Positions 125 through 36,224 of a stretch of DNA of 64,000 bases are shown in pieces. Made by a program: the position numbers and the translations under genes. The DNA is from an uncultured Gammaproteobacteria bacterium (GTDB taxonomy: Bacteria > Patescibacteriota > Patescibacteriia > Magasanikbacterales > UBA922): assembly GCA_964447765.1 (NCBI GenBank), contig CAYUTO010000002.1, forward strand, positions 148,316 to 212,315, read 5' to 3'. The notes below the pieces were generated by a model. The model saw only the letters and a program-made list of their open reading frames with translations. It ran no database searches and was not told the DNA's origin. The stretch's first letter is position 1; every line of letters starts with the position of its first letter.

Positions 125-153
125 TTGACAAACGAGCTTATATATGCTATAAT
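125..153 (+). promoter_or_regulatory. sigma70-like promoter: TTGACA (125-130), 17-nt spacer, TATAAT (148-153). It would drive the long-leader transcript of lipoprotein gene 445-1782.
   Basis: Exact consensus hexamers with a 17-bp spacer were read directly. They lie in an AT-rich segment upstream of the first high-GC ORF. Confidence 0.6.
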
Positions 154-444
154 AAGCTGTTATAAAATAAAGAAGTGCCAGGGGAGTAGGTATAGGTACC
201 TAAGTCCACGGTAGGCCATCATAGATACTATGGTGACCCATACGAACCTTACAATTTACGCGAAAATGCAAATAGGGTAAAGAACAGGTCTAAGCTATCC
301 GTGGCGTGAAGAAAGAAGTCTTATACAAGAATTTTTTCTTAGCGTCACGAGGTAGTTCAAGGCGTGAACTCCTCGTGTAGTACGAGAGAGTATAGTTCTA
401 AAACCCCCAAAGACCGGCATCAAAAACCGGCAAAGGCAAACGTC

Positions 445-1782
445 ATGAAGAAGATCAATGTCATGCTCGACCGCATCTGCGGTGTCATCATGCTCCCGGC
501 CCTCATCGTCATCCTGTTCACGCTCACGACCGCCTACGGCGGCTGCGCGGACCACGGCGGCGCCGAAACGGTCATCCAGAAGGGAGACAAGGGCGAGCAG
601 GGTGAACCTGGTACGCCCGGCACGAACGGCACCGATGGTGTCGATGGTGAGAAGGGCGACCCCGGCGAGCCGGGACCGCAAGGTCCGCAGGGCGAAGACG
701 GCGAGGACGCGGTCCTCCCGTTCGAGGTGTGCGCCTCGGTGGCCGACTGTGTCGGTACCGAGAAGTGCACGAGTCAGGGGCTCTGCATCGAGCCCGGAGC
801 CACCGGACCGCAAGGTCCGCAGGGTAATTCGGGCGAAGATGGCGAAGATGGCGAGGACGGCGAAGACGCGGTCCTCCCGTTCGAGCGCTGCTCAAGCGAC
901 AACGACTGCGACCAGAACGAGGACTGCAATTCGCAGGGCCTCTGCCTGCCGCAGGCGACCACCGAGTGCTCGGTTGGCCAGGTGCAAACCTCGGCTTGCG
1001 GAGTGAACAATCGTGGTTCGCAGACGCGAGTTTGCGGAAGCAATGGCAGCTGGGGCTCGTGGAGTGCGTGCAACAGCACGGACGTGTGTGTCGATGGACA
1101 GATTCGTTCCGTCGAGTGCGCCTCGGGTCACGTGGGCAACTACCCCGAAGAGCGATGTGTCAATGGTCACTGGCAGATGTACGGCGCGTGCAACAACGAC
1201 GCGCAGTGCACGGTCGGCGAGACTGAATACACCGACTGCGGCCTCAACAACAATGGAAACCGAGTGCGTACTTGCACGAGCGACCGTAGCTGGAGCTCGT
1301 GGGGCGCGTGCAACGATCCGGACGTCTGCGTCGATGGCGCGGTCGAAACTCAGTCCTGCGGCACCAACAACGCCGGTACGCGTCAGCGCACCTGTGGTGG
1401 TGGTCAGTGGGGTAGCTGGGGAACGACTTGCGTTATGCCGCAGGGTGAGCTCGTGACCATCACGGTCACCTCACCTCAGGCAGCTGAGGCGCACGTCTAC
1501 TACGGCGATGGGTTCGACGACTTCGGGAACACGACCTTCACGGTCTCGGTTCCGAAGTCGGAAGCCTGTAGCTGGGGAGTCGAGGTTGACCTTCGCGTCG
1601 CGAAGTCGACCAAGGAAACGATGCCCTGGTACAACTGCACCGCACAGGACGCGAGCGTGCCGAGTTTCTCGGGCGTGAAGGTCTTCGTGAACGGTACAGA
1701 GATCGTCTGGACCATCGTCTCCCATCCGTGGGAGTGCGGGGGTAACCTGCAGGTCACCCGAGCGCAGCTCGGCTGTCTGTAA
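445..1782 (+). CDS. High-GC secreted lipoprotein (family member 1). It has a signal peptide with a lipobox-like ...TTAYGGC, then collagen-like G-X-Y tracts, four thrombospondin type-1-like Cys/Trp repeats, and the conserved C-terminal family domain.
   Basis: The ORF track gives 364-1782, but the ATG at 445 (MKKINVML...) is preceded by AAAGG and followed by a hydrophobic signal sequence. G-X-Y repeats read GEQGEPGTPGTNGTDGVDGEKGDPGEPGPQGPQGEDGED. Repeats have the form CG.NN.G.R.RTC....W.SW..CN..DVCVDG. The C-terminus ...ACSWGVEVDL...WYNC...VNG...LGCL is shared with the paralogs. GC-rich third codon positions contrast with the flanks. Confidence 0.8.
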   Translation: MKKINVMLDRICGVIMLPALIVILFTLTTAYGGCADHGGAETVIQKGDKGEQGEPGTPGTNGTDGVDGEKGDPGEPGPQGPQGEDGEDAVLPFEVCASVADCVGTEKCTSQGLCIEPGATGPQGPQGNSGEDGEDGEDGEDAVLPFERCSSDNDCDQNEDCNSQGLCLPQATTECSVGQVQTSACGVNNRGSQTRVCGSNGSWGSWSACNSTDVCVDGQIRSVECASGHVGNYPEERCVNGHWQMYGACNNDAQCTVGETEYTDCGLNNNGNRVRTCTSDRSWSSWGACNDPDVCVDGAVETQSCGTNNAGTRQRTCGGGQWGSWGTTCVMPQGELVTITVTSPQAAEAHVYYGDGFDDFGNTTFTVSVPKSEACSWGVEVDLRVAKSTKETMPWYNCTAQDASVPSFSGVKVFVNGTEIVWTIVSHPWECGGNLQVTRAQLGCL

Positions 1783-1802
1783 ACAACGCATTTCGCGTAA
1801 AG

Positions 1803-1898
1803 CTTTGAGTAAATAGCGACGTACTCAAAGTTCAATTCAACCAAGTCGCGGTAGGCAGGACTCGCTGGTGAAATACACTAGCTGGAGTCCTGCCTACC
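1803..1898 (+). other. Two strong GC-rich stem-loops directly after the gene-1 stop. One has a 9-bp stem (1803-1830) and one a perfect 14-bp stem (ggtaggcaggactc / gagtcctgcctacc, 1850-1898). Neither has a U-tract.
   Basis: The inverted repeats were read directly. They could be a 3' mRNA stabiliser or a Rho-dependent/processing site. Function is not established. Confidence 0.4.
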
Positions 1899-2049
1899 AC
1901 TCCAACATATCTTTATCAACATTCAGAACTCAGATTACAGTGAGCGACTAGTGAAAAATTGGTAAAGAGATGTGGGAATGAAAATTGCAAGTCCATCGAA
2001 AGATGGTTCGATGTTACCCTAACCGCGTGGACAGAAATGTTACGCGCGG

Positions 2050-2076
2050 AAAAAACCCGCGTATGCGGGTTTTTTG
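2050..2076. terminator. Rho-independent terminator, probably bidirectional: A-run, cccgc-gtat-gcggg, T-run.
   Basis: The sequence aaaaaacccgcgtatgcgggtttttt has a GC stem, a 4-nt loop, and flanking A and T runs. Confidence 0.6.
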
Positions 2077-2164
2077 AAAACTATCTCACACTCTTGCAAC
2101 ATGAATATGTGGTGTATCAAGAGTGGGAGAGAGAATTTTTTTTACAACACCCACGGAGAAGCTC

Positions 2165-3157
2165 ATGCCTACTTGGTTTCTTATTTTGATGGCACTGCTC
2201 CTCGGAGCATGCCAAGATGCAGTTGTCGGAGGAATCCGGCAGCTCGACGAAACCTCCAACCTCATGTTGTCAGAAGACAGTCGAGATACCTGGGTCGCGG
2301 AAGATGCCTACCCGGACACCATGATCGAGGATCCAACGATCGTGACTGATGCAACTCCCTACGACACCACTTCTGAAGTGGATACGAGGGACGTGGCAGA
2401 CACGGTCGCGGAAGTCGACGTGATCATTCCGGATTCAACTCCGGAGACGATCGAAGACATCGGACAAGAAGTCGTAGATACGACCGTGCCAGAAACCATC
2501 GGGGATACTGCGTCTGTACCTGATACGGTACTCGAGGTCGATACTGCTACGCCGGAGTGCGAAGATGACTTCGGTTGTGAAGATGACGACGACTGTACTC
2601 TCGACTCCTGCGAGAATTTCTCGTGCGTGCACGAGGAGAATACTTTGTGTGTCGCAGATACTGATGGTGATGGAATCGTTGATATCGATGACGTCTGTCC
2701 GCTGCAGCCCGAGTACTTCGATTACTTCGAAGACGACGATGGTTGTCCCGAGGCAGATCAAGATCATGATGGCTATACTCCTCTCGAAGGAGATTGCGGT
2801 GATGATCCGTCTCTCGGGAACGACCCGGCATCGTTCTGCTGGAACGAGTATGATGGCTACAATCTGCGCATACACTTCGGTGTAGGTGCAGACGAGCGGC
2901 CGTCGTGCGACTTCTACTACGACGATGGCGAGTTTGTCGAAGGAGTGTTCTTCTTCGAGACCAATGGTGCATTCCTGATCGGCCCGCACATCGCGGGGAG
3001 TGATACTCCGGGTGACGGAGTGGACCAAGATTGTGACGGGTCAGCAGACGATCCAGGAGAGTACGGACTCACGGAGCCCGACTGCATCTGGTGGCTCTTC
3101 GAAGACGACTCTAAAGAGGTCTCGTGTTGGTGGATGGAATTCGTCCCCACACCCTAG
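2165..3157 (+). CDS. High-GC, very acidic (D/E-rich) secreted lipoprotein (family member 2). It has a classic lipobox LLLGAC and a thrombospondin type-3 / calcium-binding-like DTDGDGIVDIDDVCP motif.
   Basis: The ORF track gives 2123-3157. The ATG at 2165 (MPTWFLILMALLLGAC) is preceded by GGAGA at -8. Composition and codon usage are high-GC. The C-terminal region only loosely resembles the shared family domain. Confidence 0.7.
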   Translation: MPTWFLILMALLLGACQDAVVGGIRQLDETSNLMLSEDSRDTWVAEDAYPDTMIEDPTIVTDATPYDTTSEVDTRDVADTVAEVDVIIPDSTPETIEDIGQEVVDTTVPETIGDTASVPDTVLEVDTATPECEDDFGCEDDDDCTLDSCENFSCVHEENTLCVADTDGDGIVDIDDVCPLQPEYFDYFEDDDGCPEADQDHDGYTPLEGDCGDDPSLGNDPASFCWNEYDGYNLRIHFGVGADERPSCDFYYDDGEFVEGVFFFETNGAFLIGPHIAGSDTPGDGVDQDCDGSADDPGEYGLTEPDCIWWLFEDDSKEVSCWWMEFVPTP

Positions 3158-3167
3158 ACCTGCAGCA

Positions 3168-3234
3168 CGCGGGGAGGAAAGCGCTATATACGGCTAGCCA
3201 TACGTGGCTTCCGATAGCGCCGACCTCTCCCGCG
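3168..3234 (+). other. Nested GC-rich stem-loop after the gene-2 stop. The outer arms are cgcggggagg / cctctcccgcg, the middle stem gcgctat/atagcgc, the inner stem agcca/tggct. There is no U-tract.
   Basis: The inverted repeats were read directly. Confidence 0.4.
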
Positions 3235-3251
3235 TACACTTACTCTATCGT

Positions 3252-3285
3252 TTGACAGTTCCTAGTTTTTATGCTAGGTTATAAT
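3252..3285 (+). promoter_or_regulatory. Promoter region for lipoprotein gene 3. It is homologous to the gene-4 promoter (TTGACA, 17 nt, TAGGTT, then an overlapping TATAAT).
   Basis: It aligns base-for-base with the gene-4 promoter around ...gctag[ga]tta...tgtattttgaa. The -10 is weaker than consensus. Confidence 0.4.
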
Positions 3286-3612
3286 GTATTTTGAACTTCG
3301 CATTTCGGCTGTCTGTACTATAAAAATAGTACAGGTGTACGGTATGCGGCACTTGAAAAATATTCGAGTGCTGGATCTTTGAAAAAATAGAAACGCACAG
3401 TCCAGATAGGAACTATTCGTCTGCCACAGTGGCAAGGACGTATGTACTATCGAGAGACTGTAAAGGAGGTATAGACAGCAAAGGTTTTGCTGTCTAGAAA
3501 TGTGGGTATCCTTAGAGTACAAGTCCGGATAAACAGTCGTCACAAGTCGTGGCGAGCATGTGAAATCTGGATGAACTGCCACACACCAAACACACGTGGC
3601 AAGGGGAATATC

Positions 3613-5442
3613 ATGAAGTTCAATACCAAGCCCATCATCCTGATGGGCTCCGCTCTGCTCGCACTCGCGAGTCTGAGCAGTGGGTGCGCTGATCACACGC
3701 CGGATGAGCTGGTCGTGGTCCAAGCGCCGGTCGTCGACATCGACAACGACGGAGTTCTCGACAATCTCGACAACTGCGACGATGTGCCGAACGAAGACCA
3801 AGCTGATACCGACAACAACGGTGTCGGTGATGCCTGTCAGGCAGACGACGACAGCGACGGTCACCTCGATGGTGCCGACAACTGCCCGCTCGTTTCGAAC
3901 AGTGACCAGCACAACCACGACGGCCCGGGCAACCTCAACTCGATCGTGACGACCGACACCATGGGTGACGCGTGCGATCCCGACGACGACAACGACGGGA
4001 TCTGCGATCAGGATGTGCCGGAAGGTACGGTTGGATGCGTCTACTACGACGATCATCCGGACAACTGCGAGGGTACGCCCAATCCGTTGCAGGAAGACCT
4101 CGACAACGACTACTTCGGCGACGCCTGCGACAACGACTGGGATGGTGACAACGTCCACAATGACGATGACACCTGCCCGTTCCTGCGCAACCAGGGTGAA
4201 GGACCGCAGAAGGACTCGGACAGCGACGGCGACGGCGACCTGTGCGACGATGATGACGATGGCGACGGTATCCCCGACGTCAGCGACAATTGTCCTCTGC
4301 ACTGCAACCCCGAGCAGGTCAACATGGACACCAGCGACGGTAACACCGATACCGAGGGAGATATCTTCGGCGACGAGTGCGACACCGATCCTGATGGCGA
4401 CGGCGTCATGAACTTCCACATGTGGCAGATGCCGCCGTGGTCGTGCGATGACGACGACAACTGCACGGTCGATCTCGACTGCGGTGACGACGACAACTGC
4501 ACCGACGACTGGTGCTACATGCCAGAAGATGGCAACGTCACCGCGAACTACTGGACCTGCCAGAACACCATCGACCTCGAGAACGAGGGTTGTATGGAGC
4601 CGCAGTGCTCCACCAACACCGACTGCCCGAGCGATGGTAACCCGTGCACCGACGAATGGTGCGACATGGGTGTCTGTGCGGTCTTGAACAACACGGCATC
4701 TTGTGCCGACTCCGACCTCTGCGATGGGGCCGAAGTCTGCGCCGGTGGTGTGTGTACGGACCAGGCGGATCTGGTCTGCAACGACAACAACTCCTGCACC
4801 GACGACACTTGTGTCCCGGCTACGGGTTGTTCCTACATGAGCGACGACACGAACGTGTGCGTCGACGCCAACCTCTGTAACGGCACTGAGACTTGCGTCT
4901 CGGGCGTCTGTACCGATCAGGCGGATCTGAGCTGCAACGACGAGGATGGCACTACGGCCGACTCGTGCGATCCCTCCACGGGATGCGTGCATACTCCGAT
5001 CGGAGGAGCGTGCACGGTCAATGCGAACTGCAACGACGGTGATCCGTTGACCTACGACACGTGCGTCTCGCTCGTCTGCCAGTATGCGCCGGGCATTCGC
5101 GTGCAGGTCTCGTCGACCGATGTGTCGGAGGCTTGGCAGGTCAACTTCTACTACAACGGCACGACGATCTCCGGCAACCTGCCCTTCGACGGCACCTTGC
5201 CGAAGACTCAGTCCTGTGACTGGGGTGTCGATCTCGCGGTCAATCGTCCCAGTACCAACCTGTACTGGGATTGCAACCCGGGGTTCCCCTCGAAGTCGAC
5301 CTTGACCGTCATGGTCAACGGCGTCACGAAGACGAACCAGTTCATGCAGCGCGCTTCGGCATGCGGCAATGCTGCACCGGGCAACCTGTACCTGTCGGAC
5401 GAGACGGGGGACAACGACCTCGGCTGCCCGGCCGCTCCTTAG
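3613..5442 (+). CDS. High-GC secreted lipoprotein (family member 3). It has a signal peptide with lipobox LSSGC, a long array of thrombospondin type-3-like calcium-binding repeats (D.D.DG..D..DNCP...N.DQ.D), Cys-rich CxDxNxC repeats, and the conserved C-terminal family domain.
   Basis: The ORF track gives 3487-5442. The ATG at 3613 (MKFNTKPIILMGSALLALASLSSGC) is preceded by AAGGGG. Repeats include DNDGVLDNLDNCDDVPNEDQADTDNNGVGDAC. The C-terminus reads ...SCDWGVDLAV...WDCNPG...VNG...NLYL...LGCP. Confidence 0.8.
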   Translation: MKFNTKPIILMGSALLALASLSSGCADHTPDELVVVQAPVVDIDNDGVLDNLDNCDDVPNEDQADTDNNGVGDACQADDDSDGHLDGADNCPLVSNSDQHNHDGPGNLNSIVTTDTMGDACDPDDDNDGICDQDVPEGTVGCVYYDDHPDNCEGTPNPLQEDLDNDYFGDACDNDWDGDNVHNDDDTCPFLRNQGEGPQKDSDSDGDGDLCDDDDDGDGIPDVSDNCPLHCNPEQVNMDTSDGNTDTEGDIFGDECDTDPDGDGVMNFHMWQMPPWSCDDDDNCTVDLDCGDDDNCTDDWCYMPEDGNVTANYWTCQNTIDLENEGCMEPQCSTNTDCPSDGNPCTDEWCDMGVCAVLNNTASCADSDLCDGAEVCAGGVCTDQADLVCNDNNSCTDDTCVPATGCSYMSDDTNVCVDANLCNGTETCVSGVCTDQADLSCNDEDGTTADSCDPSTGCVHTPIGGACTVNANCNDGDPLTYDTCVSLVCQYAPGIRVQVSSTDVSEAWQVNFYYNGTTISGNLPFDGTLPKTQSCDWGVDLAVNRPSTNLYWDCNPGFPSKSTLTVMVNGVTKTNQFMQRASACGNAAPGNLYLSDETGDNDLGCPAAP

Positions 5443-5443
5443 A

Positions 5444-5646
5444 ACCTCTCCTGCCTCGGCAGGAGACACCACGAAGCGATGTATGATTCGCTTCTGTAGG
5501 TGACGTTCGACGACGATCATACAACAACCCGGGGAAGTGCGCGTGCTACGGCACCCGCTTCCCCCTCTCTACTCTGAATTCAAGTACGATCTTGAAGATA
5601 GAGTAAAGAATAACAAAAAACTCCTGAGAATATTCAGGAGTTTTTT
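5444..5646 (+). repeat. Copy A of a ~200-bp conserved structured 3' element. It has five hairpins and ends in a terminator. The second copy is at 8229-8428.
   Basis: It is near-identical (a handful of substitutions) to 8229-8428. Hairpins include ctcctgcc-tc-ggcaggag and gaagcga-tgtatgat-tcgcttc. Further hairpins are the nested ggggaag...[gtgc-tacg-gcac]...cttcccc and ttcaag-tacgat-cttgaa. The last is ctcctga-loop-tcaggag followed by T6. Confidence 0.7.
5615..5646. terminator. Bidirectional Rho-independent terminator: A6, ctcctga-gaatat-tcaggag, T6. It forms the 3' end of repeat copy A.
   Basis: The stem-loop is flanked by A-run and T-run. Confidence 0.7.
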
Positions 5647-5671
5647 GTATGGTAAAGGTGGGTATTTTGTC

Positions 5672-5700
5672 TTGACTTATTTCTTTTTGTGTGCTAGATT
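5672..5700 (+). promoter_or_regulatory. sigma70-like promoter: TTGACT (5672-5677), 17 nt, TAGATT (5695-5700). It serves lipoprotein gene 4.
   Basis: Hexamers and spacing were read directly. It is homologous to the gene-3 promoter. Confidence 0.65.
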
Positions 5701-5934
5701 ATCCTGTATTTTGAAAATCCCTGTAGCGTGTGTATTTTTTGTGTGCTAAGTACGTATGCTATGTCGCTCGAAGTATATTCGAGCGATTAGATGTTCTTTA
5801 CAGAATAGTTAGTTATTTTCACAGTCAGAGGATGGGTGTACGTATAGAGAAATACGTGTGTATATCCACCCTCTGACTGCGGAAGTTCCACAAGTTAGAG
5901 TTCGTGAGGCTAGTGTTCAAAGGAAGTCTTTAGA

Positions 5935-8205
5935 ATGTACAGCAATCGCAACTCCATCGTCGCGCTCGTCGCGACGACCCTACTCATGGGGCTCATGAGC
6001 ATCTCGGCGTGCGAAAAGCACGACGACGGCAGTACCACCATCGTCAACAAGGAGGACCTCGGCCCGCAAACCGAGGCAGGTGCGCTCGATCTCGGGTTCT
6101 GCTCGATCAACTGGGACCAGACGCACACGTGCGTCGAGCTCGACTGTCCGGCATTCGGCGTCGAGTTCGAGCTCTGCAACGGTGCACCGGGACAGGGCTG
6201 TACGCTCGGTGCCAAGGTCGGTACCTGTGCTCCGCTCACGTGCGGCTCGCAGACCGTCCAGGTCTGCGACGGACCTCCGGGTCCGCAGGGCGAAGTCGGA
6301 CCACAAGGTCCGGCGGGTGATGCTGGTGCAACCGGTGAAGTCGGTCCGCAAGGGGAAACAGGTCCCCAGGGTCCGGCAGGCGACGCAGGTGCTACGGGTG
6401 AGGTGGGTCCAGAGGGGCCACAGGGTGACACGGGTCCGCAAGGTCCGTCGGGTCACAACAGCCTCATCCGTCAGTCGCCCGCGGGCGCGAACTGCCCCTA
6501 CGGAGGCACGCTCATCGAGAGCGGTGTCGACGATGGGTATCCGAGTGGAACGGCGGACAACGGTGTCCTTGAGGCAGACGAGGTCGATCACTTCTCCTAC
6601 GTCTGCAACGGTGCGCCAGGCCAGAATGGCTTGAGCTACTCGTGCTCGATCGGCGAGCTCATCGGTGAGTGCCGCACGTTCTCGTGCGGTCCGACGACTG
6701 CAGATCGGATTCAGCAAGTGAGGTTCCAAGTCTGCAACGGTGAGACGGGTCCACAAGGTTCTCAGGGGCAGCAGGGTCAGGCTGGTGAAGACGGTACGAG
6801 CTACTCGTGCTGGTTCGGTGGCTATGACGGTCAGTGCCGCACGTTCTCGTGCGGTCCGGACATCGACATGGATTCGATGGATCAGGTGATCGACAACTCG
6901 ATCGAGATCTGCGACGGCGAAGATGGACAGGACGGCGACAGCTGCTCCGTCTCCAAAGAAGATGGCTGCGCGACGATCTCGTGCGGTCCGGAAGGTGAGA
7001 TGTCGCTTTCGTGGGAATCAGAAACGATTTGCGACGGCGATTCGTGCTACTTCGGTAGCGAAGATGTCAAAGTCATGACCCTGGTCGGGGGCACCGAGTG
7101 TGTGTCGCTCTGCTGCGGCGTGGGTAATGGCGCGCATTGCGTCGACATCTGCGACGGCGAGAACTGTTCGGTCAGTCCCAAGGAGGACGGCTGTGCAGAG
7201 GTCTGCTGCAGTGGCGACTGCGTCGACATCTGCGACGGCGCGCCCGGCGGCTGTCTGAACGACGGCGAGTGTGCGAACGAAACCTTGTGCGACGGTGTCG
7301 AAGTGTGTGATCAGGGCATCTGCAGGCCGGGTACGCCCGTCACCTGCAACAACAACAATGTATGCGATGGTACTGAGACCTGCAATCCGGGAACCGGAAC
7401 CTGCAGCTCGGGCACCTCGCTCACATGCACTCCCGATGACAACCCGTGCACCGATACGGTGTGCGACGCGGTCCTCGGGTGCACGCACGTGAACGACAAT
7501 ACAAACACGTGCCTCGATGGCAACGTCTGCAACGGTGCAGAGGTATGTATCGCGGGTGTGTGTACAGACCAGGCGGATCTGGTCTGTGTCGACGCCGATC
7601 TCTGCGACGGTACCGAGACTTGCAACCCTTCGACGGGATGCAGCGCCTCGGGAACGCCGCTCAATTGCGACGACAACGACATGTGCACCACGGACAGCTG
7701 TGTCTCCGCAACGGGATGCGCTCACGCTCCGGTGGTGTGCGACGACATCGATCCGAACACGACGGACTCGTGCAATCCTTCAACGGGATGCGTGCACACT
7801 CCGATCGCTGGGCCAGAGATGCTCACGATCAAGGTGACCATTCCCGCGCGCGGAAGCCCCTCGGCAACGCCGGCGGGTGATGTGCGCTTCATCTGGGGTT
7901 CGACCTTCAACGACGGGGCACATCCGGCAAATGCCGGGAACGCCTACACGGTGACCCGGTCGATCGAGAAGTCGCAGGCCTGCCTCTGGGGCGTCGACAT
8001 CACGGTCGCCAATCCCGGCACCTCGCTCTTCTGGGACTGCCCCCTCAACGGCAATCCCGGTACGAAGTTCGATCCGAATCGTCTCCAGACGTGGGTCAAC
8101 AACGTCGAGAAGGTGGGTGTCCCGAAGCAGGACGGCAGCCAGTGCAGCGGCCAGGGTCCAGGTAATCTGTACCTCTCGCCCGCACAGCTCGGCTGTACGC
8201 CCTGA
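5935..8205 (+). CDS. High-GC secreted lipoprotein (family member 4). It has lipobox MSISAC, collagen-like G-X-Y tracts ([31 protein letters not shown]...), ICDG[EDA] Cys repeats, the same CxDxNxC Cys-rich repeats as gene 3, and the conserved C-terminal family domain.
   Basis: The ATG at 5935 is preceded by AAGGAAG at -8. The C-terminus reads ...[10 protein letters not shown]...WDCPLNG...VNN...NLYL...LGCTP. Several 20-40-nt stretches are near-identical to gene 3. Confidence 0.8.
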
Positions 8206-8228
8206 GCTAGCTCGGTAGTTCTTTCAGG

Positions 8229-8428
8229 ACCTCTCCTGCCCCGGCAGGAGACACCACGAAGCGATGTATGATTCGCTTCAGTAGGTGACGTTCGACGACG
8301 ATCATACAACAACCCGGGGAAGTGCGCGTGCTACGGCACCCGCTTCCCCCTCTCTACTCTGAATTCAAATACTTTTGAAGATAGAGTAAAGAATAACAAA
8401 AAACTCCTGATTATTTCAGGAGTTTTTT
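8229..8428 (+). repeat. Copy B of the ~200-bp structured 3' element. It starts 23 nt after the gene-4 stop.
   Basis: It is near-identical to 5444-5646. The terminator loop differs (ttattt versus gaatat) but the stem is preserved. Confidence 0.7.
8398..8428. terminator. Bidirectional Rho-independent terminator: A6, ctcctga-loop-tcaggag, T6. It forms the end of repeat copy B.
   Basis: The stem-loop is flanked by A and T runs. Confidence 0.7.
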
Positions 8429-8489
8429 GTTTTATGAAGATTAATACTGTTTCAAAATATTCTGTTTAGAACAAGCCTATGATATACTT

Positions 8490-9578
8490 ATGTGGAATTT
8501 TATGAAGAAAATACATGTCGTGCATATCATTCCCAAGCTTGGTTTCGGTGGAGCCGAGCGTTTTGTGGTTGAACTTGCGAAGCATGTGTCATCCAAAAAT
8601 ATTCGTCAGTCAATTATTACGCTGTGGGACGATCGTCCGTTGATGGGGGAATTACCTGATTCAGTTTCGTGTACCGTATTTCCTTTTGACCGTATCGGAT
8701 ATGCACATCGAATTCCGAAGCTCGCGACAGTACTTCGAGAAATGCAGGCTGATGTCGTACATACACATCTTTTTAGTGCAGATCTGTGGGGAAGGCTTGC
8801 AGCGAAGTCACTGGAGATTCCCGTAGTTACCACCGAACATAATATCAATGTGGGAGAATCGTGGCTCTGGGGAAGAATCAAGCGTGCAATGAAAAAATAT
8901 TCTCGCGTGTACACAGCGCCGTCAAGTGCTGTCCGAGAATATATGAATTCGACATATGGTATTGCAGTTGAAAATACTCGAGTGATTATGCATGGCATCG
9001 AATTAGAACATTTTATCAAAATAAAACCTGCAACTTTTGCTTCACCATACAAGCTACTCATGATGGGAAGAGTCGTAGAGCAAAAAGGGCATTCAATTGC
9101 GCTTGAGGCATTACAAAAAATTACAGACATTCCGTGTACACTTACGATGGTGGGCGATGGAGAAAAAAAAGAATCGCTCATGCGCTATGCGAAAGAATTG
9201 GGAGTGAGTGATCGAGTGATATGGAAACCAGCCATCGAGAATGTTGCTGCCGAATATGCGGCGGCAGACATCGTGCTTGTTCCTTCACGATGGGAAGGGT
9301 TGGGAATCGTCGTGCTTGAAGCGCTCGCAAGTGAAAGACTAGTGATCGCGTCTGAGGTCGGAGGAATTCCTGAAATTATTACTGATCGCGAAAACGGCCG
9401 ATTGATTCCTGTGGAAAATAGCGAGGCACTTGCAGGTGCAATTCGTGCAAGTGTGGAAAATCAATTAGCTACAAAAAAAATTGCAAAGCAAGGTCGTGCT
9501 TGGGTAAAAGAACGAGGAAGTGTAGTGCGTATGGCTGAAGCATATGAAGCCTTGTATCAAGAAGTAGTGAAAAAATAA
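8490..9578 (+). CDS. Glycosyltransferase family 4 (GT-B fold).
   Basis: N-terminus HVVHIIPKLGFGGAERFVVELAKH. C-terminal EGLGIVVLEALASERLVIASEVGGIPEII matches the GT4 E-x7-E nucleotide-sugar-binding motif. Confidence 0.75.
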   Translation: MWNFMKKIHVVHIIPKLGFGGAERFVVELAKHVSSKNIRQSIITLWDDRPLMGELPDSVSCTVFPFDRIGYAHRIPKLATVLREMQADVVHTHLFSADLWGRLAAKSLEIPVVTTEHNINVGESWLWGRIKRAMKKYSRVYTAPSSAVREYMNSTYGIAVENTRVIMHGIELEHFIKIKPATFASPYKLLMMGRVVEQKGHSIALEALQKITDIPCTLTMVGDGEKKESLMRYAKELGVSDRVIWKPAIENVAAEYAAADIVLVPSRWEGLGIVVLEALASERLVIASEVGGIPEIITDRENGRLIPVENSEALAGAIRASVENQLATKKIAKQGRAWVKERGSVVRMAEAYEALYQEVVKK

Positions 9579-14214: not shown

Positions 14215-14583
14215 ATGGAGGGAAGTATAAAAATAGTTTCAGTTAAGGAGCGGGCATATTTTTTCTGCCTTAAGCTTATTAAATTTGTTGATTCATTGAA
14301 TTCAAGAGATATGATGACTCAAATTATCGTGAAACAGGTATTAAGAAGTGGAACTAGTATTGGAGCAAATATTGTTGAAGCGCAGGCAGGAAGTTCAAAA
14401 AAAGATTTTGCCAATTTTTATGCCCATGCACTTAAGTCTGCAAATGAAACAAAATTCTGGATTGGATTACTCAGAGATTCGCATAAATCAGATAGAGAAG
14501 TTGCAAATAATTTATTGAATGAAACAAGAGAGATTGCCAATATTCTAGGTTCAAGTATACTAACACTCAAAAGGAAGAAATGA
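14215..14583 (+). CDS. Four-helix-bundle protein (the family found in 23S rRNA intervening sequences).
   Basis: QVLRSGTSIGANIVEAQAGSSKKDFANFYAHALKSANETKFWIGLL matches the hallmark ..RSATSIGANIAEG... / FI.FL.IA.GS..E core of this family. Confidence 0.75.
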   Translation: MEGSIKIVSVKERAYFFCLKLIKFVDSLNSRDMMTQIIVKQVLRSGTSIGANIVEAQAGSSKKDFANFYAHALKSANETKFWIGLLRDSHKSDREVANNLLNETREIANILGSSILTLKRKK

Positions 14584-17936: not shown

Positions 17937-19091
17937 TCAGAGGCCGAGTGGGCAGTTTAGGTCTCCTCTTGAGATGAGGAGAGATTTGCCGCAGGGAGCC
18001 TCCGGATCGTCCACGATGGTGTACCGGCTGGCTTGAGGAACTTCCTCGTGGAGTGGATCACCGTCAATCATGATCGATTCAATCGTATCCGCGATCAGCG
18101 GGTTTCCGGGGCATTCGTACCACCCAGATTCGGGTATGTTATCGCTCTCGAGTTCGAAGTCGAGTCGAATTCCCTCACTGCATGCCTCGAGAACCGGGAT
18201 GTACATGATGTACGGTGCTCGTCCCAGCCACGTTAAGTTGTCGAACCTGAGCCACACTATATCTTGGTTATGAGGTACTTTTAAGGTGACCTCAAGGAAG
18301 ATGTAGGTGCTGAAGATGCATCCAGTGAAGGGGTCGCACCGGTCCTTCGTACCTGGATTGAAATCGGCGCATATGATGTGTTCATTCTCGCATACGCTAC
18401 TTTTGCACGTCGCGTACGTACATGCATTGAAGTCGTCGCATTCGTTGGCATCAGAACATGCACTCCCGTCTGCGACGGTGCATACACCGCCGATGGCGTC
18501 AACGCATTCTTCATTGGAGAGACAGTCTGCATTGTTGCTACACTCACGTGCTGGCGGTGCTGGAAGTGCACAACCTCCGATCGTGTCGCAGGTGGAATTG
18601 CCAGGACACTCGAGTGGTTCTCCCCATATACAGTATCCAATCTTACCATGCTCCGAACATCTCTCTTCACCATCGCACGCATTGTGGTTATTGCAGTGCC
18701 AGTCCTGCGTACATTCCAGGTATTCGACGCAGGAGCCCTCGACACAGATGAAGGCGTTAGAACCGAGTTTCGTGCAGTCAGCGCTGGTGTTACATGATAT
18801 GTCGAGCGCATCTCGTCCGTCCTGAGACGTAAGAACGTCAGAGGGGCCGAGTGAGTCCAGGGTAGACGAACTCGAGTCGGTGATATCAGTCACCGTGTTG
18901 CTGTCAGAGGGTGAACTGGTGGCGTCAGGTTCTCCGGTGGTGGTGTCAGGAACCCAGATCGTGGTGGGGGAAGTATCACGCGTGGAAGTGTTACCACTCA
19001 CGACGCTCCCGATCTTCGGGTCGATGTCGCAGCCAACGAAGGCTGTGACCATCATCATGACTGAAGTAAGAACTGAGAAGATGTATCGCAT
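17937..19091 (-). CDS. Intermediate-GC secreted lipoprotein (family member 5). It has lipobox AFVGC, a Ser/Thr/Asp-rich linker, Cys-rich CxDxNxC repeats, and the conserved C-terminal family domain.
   Basis: MRYIFSVLTSVMMMVTAFVGCD. AAGGAG sits 7 nt upstream on the minus strand. Repeats (CDDFNACTYATC, CDPFTGCIFS) resemble genes 3 and 4. The C-terminus reads ...ACSEGIRLDF...WYECPGNP...IDG...LNCPLGL. Confidence 0.75.
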   Translation of the reverse strand: MRYIFSVLTSVMMMVTAFVGCDIDPKIGSVVSGNTSTRDTSPTTIWVPDTTTGEPDATSSPSDSNTVTDITDSSSSTLDSLGPSDVLTSQDGRDALDISCNTSADCTKLGSNAFICVEGSCVEYLECTQDWHCNNHNACDGEERCSEHGKIGYCIWGEPLECPGNSTCDTIGGCALPAPPARECSNNADCLSNEECVDAIGGVCTVADGSACSDANECDDFNACTYATCKSSVCENEHIICADFNPGTKDRCDPFTGCIFSTYIFLEVTLKVPHNQDIVWLRFDNLTWLGRAPYIMYIPVLEACSEGIRLDFELESDNIPESGWYECPGNPLIADTIESIMIDGDPLHEEVPQASRYTIVDDPEAPCGKSLLISRGDLNCPLGL

Positions 19092-19141
19092 GAAAGACTC
19101 CTTTGGAGGAAGAAAACACTGTTTTGGTCAAAGAGCGAGCA

Positions 19142-19195
19142 CTAGGAATCCTTTCCTAGTACTTAGTTAATTCGCAAGCTTTCGAACTAACTAAG
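19142..19195. promoter_or_regulatory. Two adjacent palindromes in the promoter region of the minus-strand lipoprotein gene. They are ctaggaa-tcct-ttcctag (19142-19159) and cttagttaattcg-caagct-ttcgaactaactaag (19162-19195). These are candidate operators.
   Basis: The inverted repeats were read directly. Their position is between the HTH-regulator gene and the lipoprotein gene. Confidence 0.35.
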
Positions 19196-19224
19196 GTCTA
19201 AGAAAAAAAATAGACATGCGGTGA

Positions 19225-19641
19225 CTAACCTATGTCTACATTATTTGGTGTAAATGAATTTGTGTCAATTGATGAAATATCCTTCTCTCGTTTCGAGATA
19301 GTATCTTCTGTAGTATTTTTTTTGAGAATTTTGGTACTAGGAGAATAGAGTGTATTTGAAATCTTCCATTTATCGACAAACTGCCCAATACCACGTTTTT
19401 CTGTTTTATTTTTCACCGTAGTTTTTCTCTGAGACCATTTCACGAGACTTTCAAAATTGATCTTGTATCTACCAGCGACCACCACATACGTAATCTCCTG
19501 ATCACGAATAGCCCTTCGTATAGTCTGTGGATTAACTCCAAAAAGGCGTGCGGCCTCGGAAATCGAGACTCTAATTATCTCTTTTTGGTCAGGGGGTGGA
19601 ATAAGGGGGTTTGTTACCATAGTATACATTTGTATACACAA
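19225..19641 (-). CDS. Small DNA-binding protein with an excisionase/MerR-type helix-turn-helix (HTH).
   Basis: ISEAARLFGVNPQTIRRAIRDQEITYVVVAGRYKI matches the excisionase-family HTH domain. The remainder is a Lys/Thr-rich tail. Confidence 0.6.
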   Translation of the reverse strand: MCIQMYTMVTNPLIPPPDQKEIIRVSISEAARLFGVNPQTIRRAIRDQEITYVVVAGRYKINFESLVKWSQRKTTVKNKTEKRGIGQFVDKWKISNTLYSPSTKILKKNTTEDTISKREKDISSIDTNSFTPNNVDIG

Positions 19642-19942: not shown

Positions 19943-20539
19943 ATGGTGAAGGCACAGAATAAGTTTAATGAAAAAAAGCTCGTCTATCGAGTTCGGGTGC
20001 ACAAAGACACCGAAGCGTTTGGCGAACTCTATGACCGGTATGTCTCCAAAATATACCGATTTATATATCTCAAGGTGTCTCACAAAGAAGAGGCTGAAGA
20101 TATTGCAAGTGAGGTATTTTTGAAGACCTGGAATTATCTGACTGATGTACAAAGAGAGGCTGATAAAGAAATAGAGAGTTTCAGTGGACTTATCTATACG
20201 ATCGCACGCACTTCCCTCATAGATTTTTTTAGAAGCCGTGCGAGACGAAAAGAATGTACCATTGAAGTCTTGGAAGCAGTAGCTCATGATTCAAATATTG
20301 AAGAATCAACTACGCGCGAACAAGAAGTGGAAGTGGTGCTCAAAAATTTAAAAATGATGAAACGTGAGTATCAGGAAATTATCGTACTCAAATATATCGA
20401 GGAATTGTCTACTACTGAAATTTCTCACATATTAGACAAGAGTACCGTGTCAATTCGGGTGACGTTGCATCGAGCCTTGAAGATTTTAAAGAAAATGATC
20501 GAAGAAAAAAAGTCTGCCTCTCGTGGAAAGAAAAAATAA
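19943..20539 (+). CDS. RNA polymerase sigma-70 family factor (ECF-like: region 2 plus region 4).
   Basis: FGELYDRYVSKIYRFIYLKVSHKEEAEDIASEVFLKTW resembles region 2. EIIVLKYIEELSTTEISHILDKSTVSIRVTLHRALKILKK resembles a region-4 HTH. The ORF track starts at 19895. The ATG at 19943 is preferred. Confidence 0.75.
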   Translation: MVKAQNKFNEKKLVYRVRVHKDTEAFGELYDRYVSKIYRFIYLKVSHKEEAEDIASEVFLKTWNYLTDVQREADKEIESFSGLIYTIARTSLIDFFRSRARRKECTIEVLEAVAHDSNIEESTTREQEVEVVLKNLKMMKREYQEIIVLKYIEELSTTEISHILDKSTVSIRVTLHRALKILKKMIEEKKSASRGKKK

Positions 20540-20569
20540 TGGCAGAAACGGTAATTAAAACCGAGGTAT

Positions 20570-21754
20570 ATGAAAGAGTTGAAATCACAACTGAAAAGAA
20601 TGAAAGACCTCGAAACTCGGATCAATCCAGATCGCGAGTGGATTTTGCGTAATCGCACACGGATGATGGCTCAGATCGAACACACCTCGCTTCAGTCGGT
20701 CGCTCATCCTGTGGAAGGAGCAAAGGTGGCACATACGGTGAGTACCTGGGCCAAAATTTTTGTACCTCAGACATTGGTCCGTTCATTGAAACCAATTGCC
20801 TCGGTCGCTTTTGCACTCATGATTACAACGGTAGGATGGATCGCAAGTGCGTATGCAGAACCAGGAGATGTACTCTGGGGAGCAAAAAGTGCGTTTAATT
20901 CCGTAGTTGAAAATGGTCGTCTCGCTCTTGCTCCAGAATCAGAACAAGCCTCGCTCAAACTTTCGTATGCTTCAAAGCAGGCACATGTACTGAAGCAGGT
21001 GGTTGAAACCACTAATGTGGAAGGTGAGAAAAAAACAAAATTAGTAGAAAAGACAGCGGATAGTCTGCAGAAAAAATTGAATTCTGCTCAGGAGAGTATC
21101 AAAGTAGTACCTCTCGTCGATTCTCTCGATTTGGTAAAAAAAGTATCACTCTCAACACAAGACATCTCGCAGACACTGAAAGAAACGTTGGAAAATGCAG
21201 AGGTGGGTGGAATTTCCGAAAAAATTGAAAAAACTGCAGTCGAGACTACGAAACAAAGTTTGGAAATGGTAGGTGATGCATTTCAGAAAAAGGCTGATGC
21301 AAATATCGAAATCTCCAATGAAGAAAAAGAAATTGTGAAAGATCATATTGATCAGGCAGTAGAATCAATCATTGCCGAAGTTTCGAAAGCTCAGATCAAA
21401 TTAAACGAACAATCTGCTTCAAGTACATTATTGTTGACTACCTCAACCATTGCGACAAATCTGTTAACCTCGTCAACTCCTCTTGCACTCACCACTTCTA
21501 CAGGTTCGACCAGTATCATGGATGCAATTGCAACAGTAAAAACAATTGATGAACAAAAAAAGACTGTTAATTCGCTCAAAGAAACCAATCTGGTAGAAGC
21601 CTTGAACACGACCAAAGCATTGGCCGAGCGAGTGACAACGGTGATTGAGCAAATAACGACACAGGGGACGATCGTGAATACACCGACTACCACTTCGATT
21701 CAAACAACTACCCCTTCTGCAAGTACTACGACAAAGCCGGTAAGTTCTACCTAA
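20570..21754 (+). CDS. Single-pass membrane protein, a putative anti-sigma factor. It has a cytoplasmic N-terminus, one TM helix, an extracytoplasmic coiled-coil, and a Thr/Ser-rich tail.
   Basis: It lies immediately downstream of, and is probably co-transcribed with, the ECF-like sigma gene. The TM segment is IASVAFALMITTVGWIA. The functional assignment rests on context only. Confidence 0.4.
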   Translation: MKELKSQLKRMKDLETRINPDREWILRNRTRMMAQIEHTSLQSVAHPVEGAKVAHTVSTWAKIFVPQTLVRSLKPIASVAFALMITTVGWIASAYAEPGDVLWGAKSAFNSVVENGRLALAPESEQASLKLSYASKQAHVLKQVVETTNVEGEKKTKLVEKTADSLQKKLNSAQESIKVVPLVDSLDLVKKVSLSTQDISQTLKETLENAEVGGISEKIEKTAVETTKQSLEMVGDAFQKKADANIEISNEEKEIVKDHIDQAVESIIAEVSKAQIKLNEQSASSTLLLTTSTIATNLLTSSTPLALTTSTGSTSIMDAIATVKTIDEQKKTVNSLKETNLVEALNTTKALAERVTTVIEQITTQGTIVNTPTTTSIQTTTPSASTTTKPVSST

Positions 21755-22140: not shown

Positions 22141-25100
22141 ATGAATGATGTAATTAAATTCGGTAAGAAGCTCTTTTCAGCTTCTGTAGTTGGAGTAACA
22201 ATCGCTTGGAGCATGGGCCTTGCAGCCTTCGTTCCAGTAGCTGCTCAAGCTGCAACCTGTCCAGAACTCGAAGCCGGAGATTTGTTTAAAGCGACCGGTG
22301 CCTCAGCTGTATATTATCTTACCGCTAGCATGGAACGCGCATACTTCCCACATGTGGACGTATTCAACAGTTGGAACCTTAGTTTCAACGACGTAGTAAC
22401 CGTATCTGGTGAATGTCTTTTTGCTTACCCAGCAGCAACAGTTGCAGGTATCAATTACCGACCTGGATCACGCTTGGTGAAGCTCTCAGACGCATCACCT
22501 GTATTCGCTGTTACCCCTGGTAACAAGCTTGTACAAGTTACTGGAGAATCAGCTGCAGCTCTCTATGGAACAAACTGGACATCAGTTTTACGTGATGTTA
22601 GTCCATTCCACTGGGCAAGTTACACTGACACTCGAACAACATGGGGTGAATCAAAACCTCATGATGGTCAGTTTGTAAAAAAGACTGGCGAAACAACTGT
22701 ATACTGGGTAAAAGATGGTATGCTTCATCAAGTTGATGGATCAAATGTACCTGACGTTCGCACAGTATCAGCTGCAACATTTGCAACTCTTTCAGTTGCA
22801 AGTGGATCAGTAACGGTAAGCTCTGCATACGCTAACCCAACTCAGGTTGACGGAAGCGCACCAGCAGCTAGTACTGGAGCACTCACTGTAAGTGTTGCTT
22901 CAAATACTTCAGCTTCAAAAGTTGTTCCAGGTGGAGCACAAGGAGTTGAATTTCTCGCATTTGCTGTTCGCGCAGGAAGTGAAGCTTCAACTTTGGAGCA
23001 GGTCACTTTGAAGCGCGCTGGCATCGGAAACCGAACTGACATTGAAAAGGTTTACCTTTATCACAATGGTATTCGTCTCGACAATGGACGAACAATTAAC
23101 AGTGATGATGAAGTTACTTTCAATGTTAACAAAACTATCTCAGCAAACTCAACTGAAACATTTTGGGTTAAAGCTGACATGAACACTGTTGCTGGTTCTG
23201 CAACTGCAGGATCACAAAACTACTTTGAAATTACCACTGCTTCTGAAGTAGATGGTTCTGGAACAGTAGGGGGTTCATTCCCAGTTCGTGGTAATGCAAT
23301 TACTCTTGGTGCACAAGACATCAGTAGTATTACATTGCTTGGACAGGGTAGTAATACCACTGCAAAAATCGGTGAAAATGGTGTAGTAGTAAGTGAATTT
23401 GACGCTTCTGCTGCATCTACTGATGATGTAGAATTGACTTCTGTCACTTTGAAGCAAAAAGGAACTGCTCCAGCATCTCTTCTCACCAATGTGAAATTGA
23501 TGCAGGGTGGAACTACAGTTGCAATGGGTGTAGTAAGTGGAGACTGGGTGAAATTTGATTTTACTCAGAAAGTTACGATCGAAGCTGGCGACACCAAGAG
23601 ATTCAAGGTGTATGCTGACCTCGGAATTGCTGATACCAACGATACTGTTGAACTCGTACTTGACGAGGAAGCAGACGTAATGGCATACAGTCTAGATTTC
23701 CCAGGAAGTCTTGCTGGTGTAACAAACACTTATACCACATCACAGTCACTTGCAGTGACTGTAGAAGGTGGAAAAATCAATGTTGATCTTGAAGGAACCA
23801 ACGAAGATGTACGCGTAGACCAGGACAACGTGGTATTCGGTACATTCTCTATCCTTGCAACTGCTGAAGATATTGATGTAGATACAATGGAATTCGAACT
23901 TGTTAAAACAGGTATCACAAATCCATTGGAAGATCTACGTTTGCGCGAAAAGAACGGCAAAGGTAGTTACGCACTTGAAGACACTGACACTTGTGTAATC
24001 GGAAGTACTTCATGTACTTTCACAGCAGAAAACATGATTCTCAGTAAAGGTACTACCTATGAATTCGAAATTCTAGCAGACGTACCAGCTACTGTGACTT
24101 CAGGACAAACCTACTACTTCACATGGGCAGCTGCTCAGGTGAGTGCAGAAGGTGTTTCTTCTGACAACACAGTTTCAGCAAATGATTTCTCATCAGCGTC
24201 CCTTACCGGTCCTACGATGACAGTAAATCCTTCAAAACTAACTATTCGTCAGAGTGCTCTTAGTAACGAGACTGTAGTAAACGGAACCAAGAATGTATTG
24301 GTATACCGTGGTACACTCGAAGCTGGATCAACTTCTGATGTTACTGTTACTTCTCTTACCGTTGGCGCTACCTCTACCGACCAAGCTTGGGATGGTGTAG
24401 TTGATGGTTTGAAACTCTTCATCGGTGGTGTACAGGTGTCAAATGACAACACTGTAACAAGTGAAGAAGCTGTATTCACAGGATTTAGTAATGTTATTCC
24501 TGCAGGATCAGCAAACAAAGTAACCTTCGAAGTGTACGCTGACTTGACCGACGGTTCTACTGTCGAGATGGTACAGGTACAAGTAGAAGACGCTGATGCT
24601 ACTGACGAGGATGATGACACTGTTAACGCAGTTAACGCATCTAACGTTACTGTTTCTAGCGGAAGTCCAGTTGTAGGAAGTCGTATCCTTACCATCTCTG
24701 GTACTGGTACTCTTACTGCAGTATTGGATTCAAACTACACAGGTCTTCGCAATGACTTCTACGCAGTTGCAGGCACACAGAAACAGCTTGCAGGACGCGT
24801 ACAGCTCAAAGCACTCTATGAAGATGTAGAGCTTGAAGATCTTGTAGTATATGTAAGTTCAACATGGTCAAGTGCTTCAGTTGTTGAAGCTACCTTTGAC
24901 TCATTGAACGTTTATGCTGACGCTGCAATGACCGAACTTCTCGGCACTGCTGACGTAACTAGTGGAGCTGTGACGATCGAAAACGTAGACTTCGTTGTAC
25001 CTGCTGACAGTACCAAGTATATTTACCTTGGTCTCAACTTGAACAGCGTAGGAACCGGTGACAATGGAACCGCTACTGCAAGTACTTCGATCTTCTTGGC

Positions 25101-31756: not shown

Positions 31757-31759
31757 TGT

Positions 31760-35445: not shown

Positions 35446-35471
35446 AATATAAGTAATAGCGAGGTCAAATA

Positions 35472-35500
35472 TTGACCTTTTTGGTAGTTTGTGATAGATT
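35472..35500 (+). promoter_or_regulatory. sigma70-like promoter: TTGACC, 17 nt, TAGATT. The -35 lies within a small palindrome, ggtcaaatattgacc.
   Basis: Read directly. It is the same -10 hexamer as the gene-4 promoter. AAGGAGG lies 9 nt before the ATG at 35552. Confidence 0.6.
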
Positions 35501-35551
35501 CTTCTATCTTCTAGATCCACAGTGGGTCAGAAGTTTAAGGAGGATAGGATA

Positions 35552-36109: not shown

Positions 36110-36187
36110 TCTCAGGCCTAGGAATCTACAACATAGGTTCCGTCCATCACCTCACAAGGGTGGTGGACGGGGCTCATAAATTAACTA

Positions 36188-36210: not shown

Positions 36211-36224
36211 TTTGAAATGATAGG

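Follow-up and report, generated by a model that had tools for sequence, protein, structure and literature searches.

In a 64,000-nt stretch of DNA (positions 148,316 to 212,315 of contig CAYUTO010000002.1, assembly GCA_964447765.1; hereafter the window), six genes differ sharply in codon composition from the genes around them. The window is chromosomal DNA of a Candidatus Magasanikbacteria bacterium, a member of the Candidate Phyla Radiation (CPR, Patescibacteria), and the six genes encode five lipoproteins (g1 to g5) and a NUDIX hydrolase (Table 1). Comparison with relatives showed that their GC-rich state is old, stable and gene-specific, that it survives full synonymous turnover and that it is restricted to synonymous positions. 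The explanation that we favour, and to which we would give an even chance, is that selection on synonymous sites maintains a second codon regime, rich in GC, possibly because it yields stable folded mRNAs. The phenomenon was not found described for CPR bacteria or Magasanikbacteria in the literature searched.

The mean GC content of the window is 0.42, rising to 0.48-0.67 over about 500-8200, with more peaks at about 18000-19000 and 35500-36000. The G+C content at third codon positions (GC3) of the six genes ranges from 0.59 to 0.80 and lies 7.9-14.1 standard deviations (sd) above the mean of the 43 other window genes (mean 0.326, sd 0.033, range 0.24-0.40), which bears out an earlier note on this DNA (the original prediction) that had set the lipoprotein and NUDIX genes apart from neighbours with AT-ending codons. 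For 11 more genes, immediately beyond the downstream end of the window, GC3 is 0.25-0.37. The six genes use TTC in 97%, TAC in 90%, ATC in 81%, GAC in 65%, AAC in 73% and AAG in 84% of the respective codon choices, and in the native genes TTT makes up 80%, TAT 74%, GAT 77%, AAT 78% and ATT 57%. GAC, AAC and ATC had been named beforehand as typical of the class and are so; CTG, named with them, is not, leucine being encoded by CTC (56%) in preference to CTG (26%). Codons ending in G and in C are both favoured, and those composed of A and T only are the most strongly avoided. The same dialect (CTC, GTC, TCG, CCG, TTC at about 100%, ATC and AAG) is used by all 15 GC-rich genes identified in three genomes, independently of gene function, and the strength of the bias is characteristic of each ortholog group.

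The boundaries of the GC-rich segments follow the coding sequences (CDSs). Change-point analysis placed the 5' rise 12-41 nt past the start codon in all six window genes and the 3' drop between -9 and +156 nt from the stop codon, mostly past GC-rich hairpins, in agreement with the predicted jump near the start codon and end at the 3' stem-loops. When 14 such genes were pooled, GC3 was 0.59 in codons 1-5 and 0.77 in codons 6-10. The GC content of the promoters is 0.30-0.35, that of the 5' untranslated regions (UTRs) 0.40-0.44, that of native intergenic DNA 0.36 and that of the 3' UTRs 0.44-0.48, except for an 83-nt stretch after g2 (0.61). The promoters predicted at 125, 5672 and 35472 are indeed present, and g3 and g5 proved to have one each as well. 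No -35/-10 promoter of its own was identified for g2; unlike the promoterless open reading frames (ORFs) of integron cassettes, the other five of the six genes carry one. The 5' leaders range from about 45 nt (NUDIX) to 320 nt, and the 3' hairpins run into U-tracts, as intrinsic terminators typically do. The leaders of g1, g3 and g4 form several long near-perfect hairpins and fold far more stably than dinucleotide shuffles, with minimum free energy (MFE) z of -5.8 to -7.5 (Table 1); none of these three leaders matched a known riboswitch or leader family, and an Rfam scan of the window gave no match. The g1-g4 region is not the contiguous foreign block of a genomic island, its spacers dropping to 0.30-0.48 GC. 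The only long direct repeat within 1-22000 is the 3' UTR that g3 and g4 share. A tRNA scan of the window found no tRNA gene. The original prediction that this is not a simple recent island thus stands, with spacers, promoters and leaders native and conserved in relatives and no tRNA gene flanking.

L002, which comes from a different metagenome, is syntenic with the window, and its orthologs of g1 (at 7228-8628), g4 and g5 have GC3 of 0.79, 0.70 and 0.61. Three more of its genes, one for a coiled-coil membrane protein and two for small secreted proteins, reach GC3 of 0.79-0.89; its syntenic glycosyltransferases have 0.33-0.40, and the GC content of its spacers is 0.24-0.47. Native proteins are 54-76% identical between the window and L002, except for a non-orthologous Wzy (23%), and synonymous sites are saturated in both classes of gene, with synonymous divergence (dS) of at least 1.5 and four-fold-site identity of 0.28-0.46. 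The L002 protein P0001 is the only full-length g4 homolog among 5.8 billion protein clusters, most matches of the full-length g4 search being driven by the collagen repeats. In closer relatives the g5 ortholog has GC3 of 0.61 (L003), 0.60 (L004) and 0.63 (L005), the C-terminal part of g4 in L004 has 0.77, and the NUDIX gene 0.72.

A two-state GC/AT decay model was calibrated on native third positions between the window and L004, and under it each lineage sheds about 20% of whatever GC excess it has by the time that pairwise dS reaches about 0.4. The measured dS between the window and L002 is a lower bound; the true value, extrapolated as native nonsynonymous divergence (dN, 0.29-0.40) divided by native omega (0.03-0.10), is about 4-6, at which less than about 10% of the excess should survive. 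On this calculation neutral amelioration cannot explain the observed composition, because the GC3 expected at this divergence is at most about 0.40 and that observed is 0.60-0.79. The dS of g5 is 0.14 against 0.40-0.61 for native genes (window versus L003) and 0.04 against 0.13-0.49 (L003 versus L004), and the dS of the C-terminal part of g4 is 0.32 against 0.28-0.53 (window versus L004). Neutral decay predicts dS at least equal to that of native genes, so that values in GC-rich genes not above the native ones count against it. Polarised substitutions numbered only about 18 (L003 versus L004, with the window as outgroup), and the two-taxon data fit decay and equilibrium alike.

It is unlikely, in our judgement, that recent or recurrent horizontal transfer, which would have dropped CDSs of high-GC donors behind resident promoters and left them not yet ameliorated, accounts for the class, even though several homologies point towards such donors. 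One case is a HAD phosphatase gene of the same class (GC3 0.71), which is present in L005 and missing from the window. Its best homolog (54% identical) comes from L013, whose genome has a GC content of 0.69 and a GC3 of about 0.9. The nearest homologs of the HAD protein are mostly rich in A, R, G and P, a composition of the high-GC type; one is annotated as Myxococcaceae. Homologs of the Cys repeats outside CPR occur mostly in genomes of 0.62-0.71 GC (Phycisphaerae and 'Deltaproteobacteria' metagenome-assembled genomes, MAGs), a search of genome contigs recovered three distant Cys-repeat loci in high-GC genomes, a metagenome scan with the g5 alignment recovered two distant loci, and matches to the collagen part include Polyangiaceae, Myxococcota and Bradymonadia. 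Judging from these homologies, an ancient acquisition from Myxococcota- or Planctomycetota-type bacteria of high GC content is probable for at least part of the class. The comparison of the NUDIX gene between the window and L008 would also suit transfer, since it fits decay from a GC3 of about 0.85.

Several observations speak against transfer as the cause of the present composition. The syntenic L002 orthologs hold the same GC3 despite saturated synonymous sites. Homology searches, proposed beforehand as a check, point to high-GC taxa for the HAD gene and the Cys repeats but not for g4, which has a full-length homolog only in the CPR protein P0001, nor for NUDIX, for which no close homolog and no donor were seen; apart from the NUDIX query itself a word-index search returned a single cluster, and the closest of the remote homologs share 33-44% identity with it and are of mixed composition. 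The dialect is uniform and differs from that of L013, the donor-type genome, and no known mechanism places at least ten ORFs so precisely behind promoters. The frequencies of GARP and FYMINK residues in the HAD protein are 0.24 and 0.26, those of native enzymes 0.23 and 0.29, and those of most of its nearest homologs 0.30-0.37 and 0.14-0.19. GC3 of the HAD gene has moved only about one third of the way from the donor-type to the native value, and its amino acids are already native-like, which indicates that the force acts specifically on synonymous sites. Taken together, the limit to CDSs, the onset a few codons past the start, the spared UTRs and the native amino acids tell against mutation bias, effects coupled to transcription and biased gene conversion, and in favour of selection on synonymous sites.

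Alleles within the class are exchanged between genomes. At the NUDIX locus, promoter and leader share about 81% identity between the window and L005, and the 3' hairpin, terminator and downstream genes about 84%; what lies between has been replaced, starting a little ahead of the Shine-Dalgarno sequence and ending about 30 nt beyond the stop codon. The CDS at this site in L005 shares only 38% protein identity with that of the window and is also GC-rich (GC3 0.78), and L005 carries the extra HAD gene there. The promoter region is kept in L005, and in L008 and L009 homology to the window begins only at 35492. At g5, the promoter, leader and signal-peptide codons (18966-19335) have no DNA homology to L003 or L004, in contrast to the sequence on either side, which is about 90% identical; this marks a recombination breakpoint at the gene's 5' end. 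The L005 allele of g5 is a mosaic. Replacement of the NUDIX CDS between kept flanks, and the extra HAD gene, are what transfer would produce; the swapped alleles carry CPR-type flanks, however, and the allele pool therefore resides in CPR genomes. The suggestion that CDSs were acquired under resident promoters accordingly finds support in the cassette-like NUDIX swap and in the HAD homolog of a 69%-GC genome and does not hold as a fresh import, the state being old.

The same exchanges raise the question of GC-biased gene conversion, in which biased mismatch repair at recombination hot-spots raises GC content. The swapped g5 promoter and signal-peptide region, the mosaic L005 allele, the swapped NUDIX alleles and the low dS of g5 would all suit it, as would the 3' UTRs of g3 and g4 (about 200 nt; 5441-5650 and 8226-8432), which are 97% identical to each other over 147 nt, as against only about 75% identity with their L004 ortholog. 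We nevertheless consider it quite improbable. The effect stops about five codons from the start and spares UTRs that recombine together with the CDSs (0.40-0.48 GC; 0.48 in the converted 3' UTR), amino-acid composition is unshifted, and g5, whose dS relative to native genes is the lowest, stands almost at the bottom of the class in GC3. A native gene at 22141-25758 offers a further comparison. It encodes a 1205-aa putative surface or secreted protein without a Pfam or NCBIfam match (GC3 0.30), which is 95% identical in L003, 86% in L005 and 45% in L004 between flanks about 90% identical and looks like a hypervariable surface protein subject to allele replacement. Since this gene is swapped and stays at GC3 0.28-0.33, recombination alone does not make genes GC-rich.

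Ordinary translational selection would make the six genes the most highly expressed ones, with codons matched to the tRNA pool, and the pattern a case of ordinary heterogeneity. Preference for C over U in two-fold positions is strong (log odds ratios against native genes of 4.8 for Phe, 3.3 for Tyr, 2.8 for Ile and 2.3 for Asn), the gene-specific bias is kept in orthologs, dS is reduced in g5 and the promoters are near consensus. On the other hand AAG, CAG, TCG, ACG and CCG are favoured too, a form that tRNA-driven bias does not usually take where the genome is reduced and of low GC content, and the NUDIX and HAD enzymes are unlikely to be among the top-expressed proteins. Slow growth and weak selection on codons are the general expectation for CPR bacteria. 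The effect seen here also exceeds the strongest selected bias in codon usage that Sharp et al. reportedly found in 2005 (S of about 2.6). We hold this explanation, too, to be improbable, with somewhat less than a one-in-five standing in our view.

The favoured explanation, selection on synonymous sites for folded mRNAs, would work as follows. A mostly monocistronic minority class would use a second codon regime behind native sigma-70-type promoters. The class comprises the five Cys-rich, adhesin-like surface lipoproteins and the NUDIX protein and, in relatives, the HAD phosphatase, the coiled-coil membrane protein and the small secreted proteins. The idea of a distinct regime for secreted proteins is thus upheld as to a stable, shared dialect and needs correction as to membership, which extends to the cytoplasmic NUDIX and HAD proteins and to the coiled-coil membrane protein. 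Hairpin-rich 5' leaders of 230-320 nt and hairpin-rich 3' UTRs would bracket and protect the mRNAs, selection would favour GC-rich, strongly folded, nuclease-resistant coding regions, and only the first few codons would be left AT-rich for initiation. In this way a small number of long-lived transcripts could supply a ribosome-poor cell with much protein. Translational selection of the ordinary, tRNA-linked kind would be an alternative form of the same idea. Folding predictions agree in part with selection for folded mRNAs. The structured 5' leaders, the 3' UTR hairpins with their five compensatory pairs and the avoidance of codons made of A and T only all suit it. The CDSs of g2-g4 are more stable when folded than versions in which synonymous codons were shuffled locally (z = -2.6 to -4.9), and the folding of five native genes was no different from that of gene-wide synonymous shuffles. 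In its full form, with two stable codon regimes in one chromosome and a CDS-limited force that keeps GC3 at 0.6-0.9 as against 0.33 for the sake of long-lived folded mRNAs, through synonymous turnover and allele swapping alike, the proposal is tentative, and we put it at rather less than even.

A number of points weigh against this explanation. The folding excess is absent from g5 (z = -1.4) and NUDIX (-0.7), neither of which showed a clear effect in the gene-wide test, and g1 gives z = -1.5; in the repeat-rich lipoproteins the excess may reflect the arrangement of the repeats. The 1205-aa exported protein stays outside the regime. The reduction of dS, three- to fourfold below native, is clear only in g5, where recent recombination could produce it; in g4 dS is lower by a small margin only. 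The NUDIX comparison with L008 fits neutral decay as well as it fits equilibrium. The argument from L002 assumes that the syntenic genes have stayed in CPR genomes since the split. Finally, the genome-wide GC3 survey that the original prediction named as a possible refutation here covers about 130 kb of the lineage, in which no ribosomal-protein, EF-Tu, other housekeeping or tRNA gene was found, and the genes may be either a special class or the top end of ordinary expression-linked bias.

Two other candidates were tried and rejected. Avoidance of endoribonuclease motifs was sought by comparing k-mers with synonymous shuffles, and only the usual depletion of TA and of off-frame stops was seen, ACA not being avoided. 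Transcription-coupled mutation or repair does not fit a coding strand that is enriched in C, not depleted of it, nor long UTRs of the same transcripts that are not GC-rich.

An artefact of assembly or binning, in which reads of a high-GC organism had been joined to a CPR scaffold, has a negligible probability in our estimate. Contig ends at the cluster might have suggested one: the L003 contig ends at the GT4 gene beside g4 (window position about 8509), and L007, a Logan assembly 100% identical to the window over 2042-5486, ends at these two positions, the latter inside the repeated 3' UTR. The same AT-to-GC junctions recur, however, in independent assemblies and samples, L004 spanning the GT4-g4 junction, L003, L004 and L005 spanning g5, and L005, L008 and L009 spanning NUDIX, and the repeated 3' UTR of about 200 nt accounts for the contig breaks. 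Misassembly, put forward originally as a way in which the pattern might dissolve, is excluded by these reproduced junctions. The lipoprotein cluster is probably often lost from CPR bins.

The coordinates of the six genes and their flanking elements are listed in Table 1. Each of g1 to g5 is predicted to be a lipoprotein with a signal peptide ending in a lipobox cysteine, a hydrophobic N-terminus being followed by ...YGGC, LGAC, SSGC, ISAC and FVGC, respectively, as read from the sequence; two of these boxes are non-canonical. The NUDIX gene matches PF00293 with 33.0 bits (Pfam gathering cut-off 21.1), and no NCBIfam equivalog and no close solved structure were found for its product. The start codon of g3 is at 3613, and the high GC content gives rise, as an artefact, to an antisense ORF of 748 aa opposite g3 (3274-5520, minus strand). 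Two deposited gene calls of L002 (7090-8004 and 8871-9437) are likewise antisense ORFs. The exact product of g2 is present in the public protein collection, and those of g1 and g4 are missing from it, several start codons having been tried. Real lipoproteins are probably mis-annotated in public MAGs.

Table 1. Genes of the GC-rich class in the window and their flanking elements
Feature	Position	Strand	Description
g1 promoter	125-153	+	TTGACA-17-TATAAT, TG before -10, 12/12 matches
g1 5' leader	161-444	+	Structured, GC 0.43, MFE z = -5.8
g1	445-1782	+	Lipoprotein with collagen repeats, Cys-rich modules and shared C-terminal beta-sandwich; GC3 0.78
g1 3' UTR	1783-2075	+	Hairpin and intrinsic terminator, GC 0.44
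g2	2165-3157	+	Acidic lipoprotein, weak TSP3-like repeat; GC3 0.59
g3 promoter	3252-3280	+	TTGACA-17-TAGGTT; downstream motif TGTATTTTGAA common to g4 promoter
g3 5' leader	3291-3612	+	Structured, GC 0.44, z = -7.5
g3	3613-5442	+	Lipoprotein with five TSP type-3 repeats, Dicty_CTDC Cys repeats and C-terminal beta-sandwich; GC3 0.80
g3 3' UTR	5441-5650	+	Several hairpins, then terminator; repeat family D3
g4 promoter	5672-5700	+	TTGACT-17-TAGATT, TG before -10
g4 5' leader	5706-5934	+	Structured, GC 0.40, z = -6.2
g4	5935-8205	+	Lipoprotein with collagen, Dicty_CTDC and DUF7107 Cys repeats and C-terminal beta-sandwich; GC3 0.74
g4 3' UTR	8206-8432	+	Structured, with terminator; paralogous copy of 5441-5650
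g5	17937-19091	-	Cys-rich lipoprotein, same C-terminal domain as g1/g3/g4; GC3 0.60
g5 promoter	19240-19268	-	TTGACA-17-AATAAT, 11/12 matches
NUDIX promoter	35472-35500	+	TTGACC-17-TAGATT
NUDIX hydrolase	35552-36109	+	Inside glycan-synthesis cluster; GC3 0.71
NUDIX 3' hairpin and terminator	36110-36215	+	Kept in L005 although the CDS there is 38% identical

The g4 3' UTR is conserved in L004 with five compensatory pairs. The near-identity of the g3 and g4 copies, for which no Rfam match was found, suggests that the copies evolve in concert or that they act as RNA elements, for example as a stabiliser or as the source of a 3'-UTR-derived small RNA. The -35 hexamer of the NUDIX promoter lies inside a perfect palindrome, GGTCAAATATTGACC (35464-35478, GGTCAA-ATA-TTGACC), also present in L005, which could be an operator site or a coincidence. 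Positions 1-60, ahead of the AT-rich g1 promoter, are GC-rich (0.58), and another GC-rich gene probably ends just upstream of the window; in L002 two further GC-rich genes lie upstream of the g1 ortholog. As to presence, g1, g4 and g5 are syntenic even in the distant L002.

The NUDIX gene sits within a large cluster of glycosyltransferase and sugar-nucleotide genes. Within this cluster the sugar-modification genes differ between relatives (29850-33556 in the window, 11766-13495 in L005), the window carrying a DmpF-like acetaldehyde dehydrogenase, a DmpG-like aldolase and a thiamine diphosphate (ThDP) enzyme and L005 split transketolase-like genes, all with native codons; this is serotype-like variation of the glycan cluster. 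Genes for an ECF-type sigma factor, a 394-aa unknown protein and an HTH_17 protein (19943-21754) adjoin g5 in all relatives and could be dedicated regulators of the neighbouring surface genes. A small gene at 14215-14583 (GC3 0.24) encodes an Avd-like four-helix bundle of TIGR02436 (23S rRNA-intervening-sequence type), a family that includes the accessory Avd proteins of diversity-generating retroelements; L003 has this gene, and L004 lacks it at the corresponding position. Within 1-22000 there is no repeat of the template/variable type, and there is no reverse transcriptase among the annotated ORFs, no search having been aimed at one.

Atypical GC content is routinely taken as a sign of recent horizontal gene transfer (HGT) and is also used for metagenome binning and gene calling. 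If the pattern were true genome-wide, composition-based detection of HGT and amelioration clocks would be badly wrong for some gene classes, and CPR bacteria would appear to be using codon and mRNA design to set apart surface and accessory genes. The full form of the proposal would, if true, add a new post-transcriptional layer of gene-class design in ultra-small, ribosome-poor CPR cells, together with a documented exception to amelioration. A genome-wide comparison may make the pattern ordinary or a genuine exception to amelioration. In practical terms, gene callers chose antisense ORFs or missed genes and assemblies break at the cluster, and probable host-contact adhesins are likely to be under-reported in CPR MAGs.

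The phenomenon combines known kinds, namely atypical genes derived from HGT and selected codon bias. In the amelioration model of Lawrence and Ochman, third positions of acquired genes reportedly drift fastest to the host value and the flanks are foreign too. The genes described here resemble such acquisitions in their atypical composition and codons, and a foreign origin is plausible for part of the class, but they retain GC3 of 0.60-0.79 after saturation, with native-like amino acids and with flanks that are native and conserved. The selected codon bias of highly expressed bacterial genes, known from the work of Ikemura and Sharp, is matched in its gene specificity, its retention in orthologs, the preference for C over U, the reduced dS in one gene and the strong promoters; it differs from the general third-position shift to G+C seen here, which includes NCG codons and AAG, is very large and is apparently bimodal instead of graded. 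In O-antigen and capsule-type loci whole blocks are atypical, usually below the genome GC content. The NUDIX and HAD genes recall them in lying in a glycan cluster that varies between close relatives and in having CDSs swapped between kept flanks, whereas here the GC-rich units are individual CDSs among glycosyltransferase genes of native composition, and the genes for the lipoproteins are not part of the pathway. Two stable GC3 classes in one genome are also known from eukaryotes, among them the grasses, with their bimodal GC3. There the usual explanation is biased gene conversion linked to recombination, gradients run from 5' to 3' and introns share in the effect; the present case differs in being bacterial and CDS-restricted with spared UTRs. 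In the AT-rich genome of Lawsonia intracellularis, putative alien genes that are unusually GC-rich have been presumed to be horizontally transferred (PMC2671203). Like them, the genes of the window form a GC-rich minority in a low-GC genome that is distinct in codon-usage analysis (PMC2671203), but the present class is conserved across saturated divergence and restricted to CDSs, neither of which is described for Lawsonia in the abstract of that report (PMC2671203).

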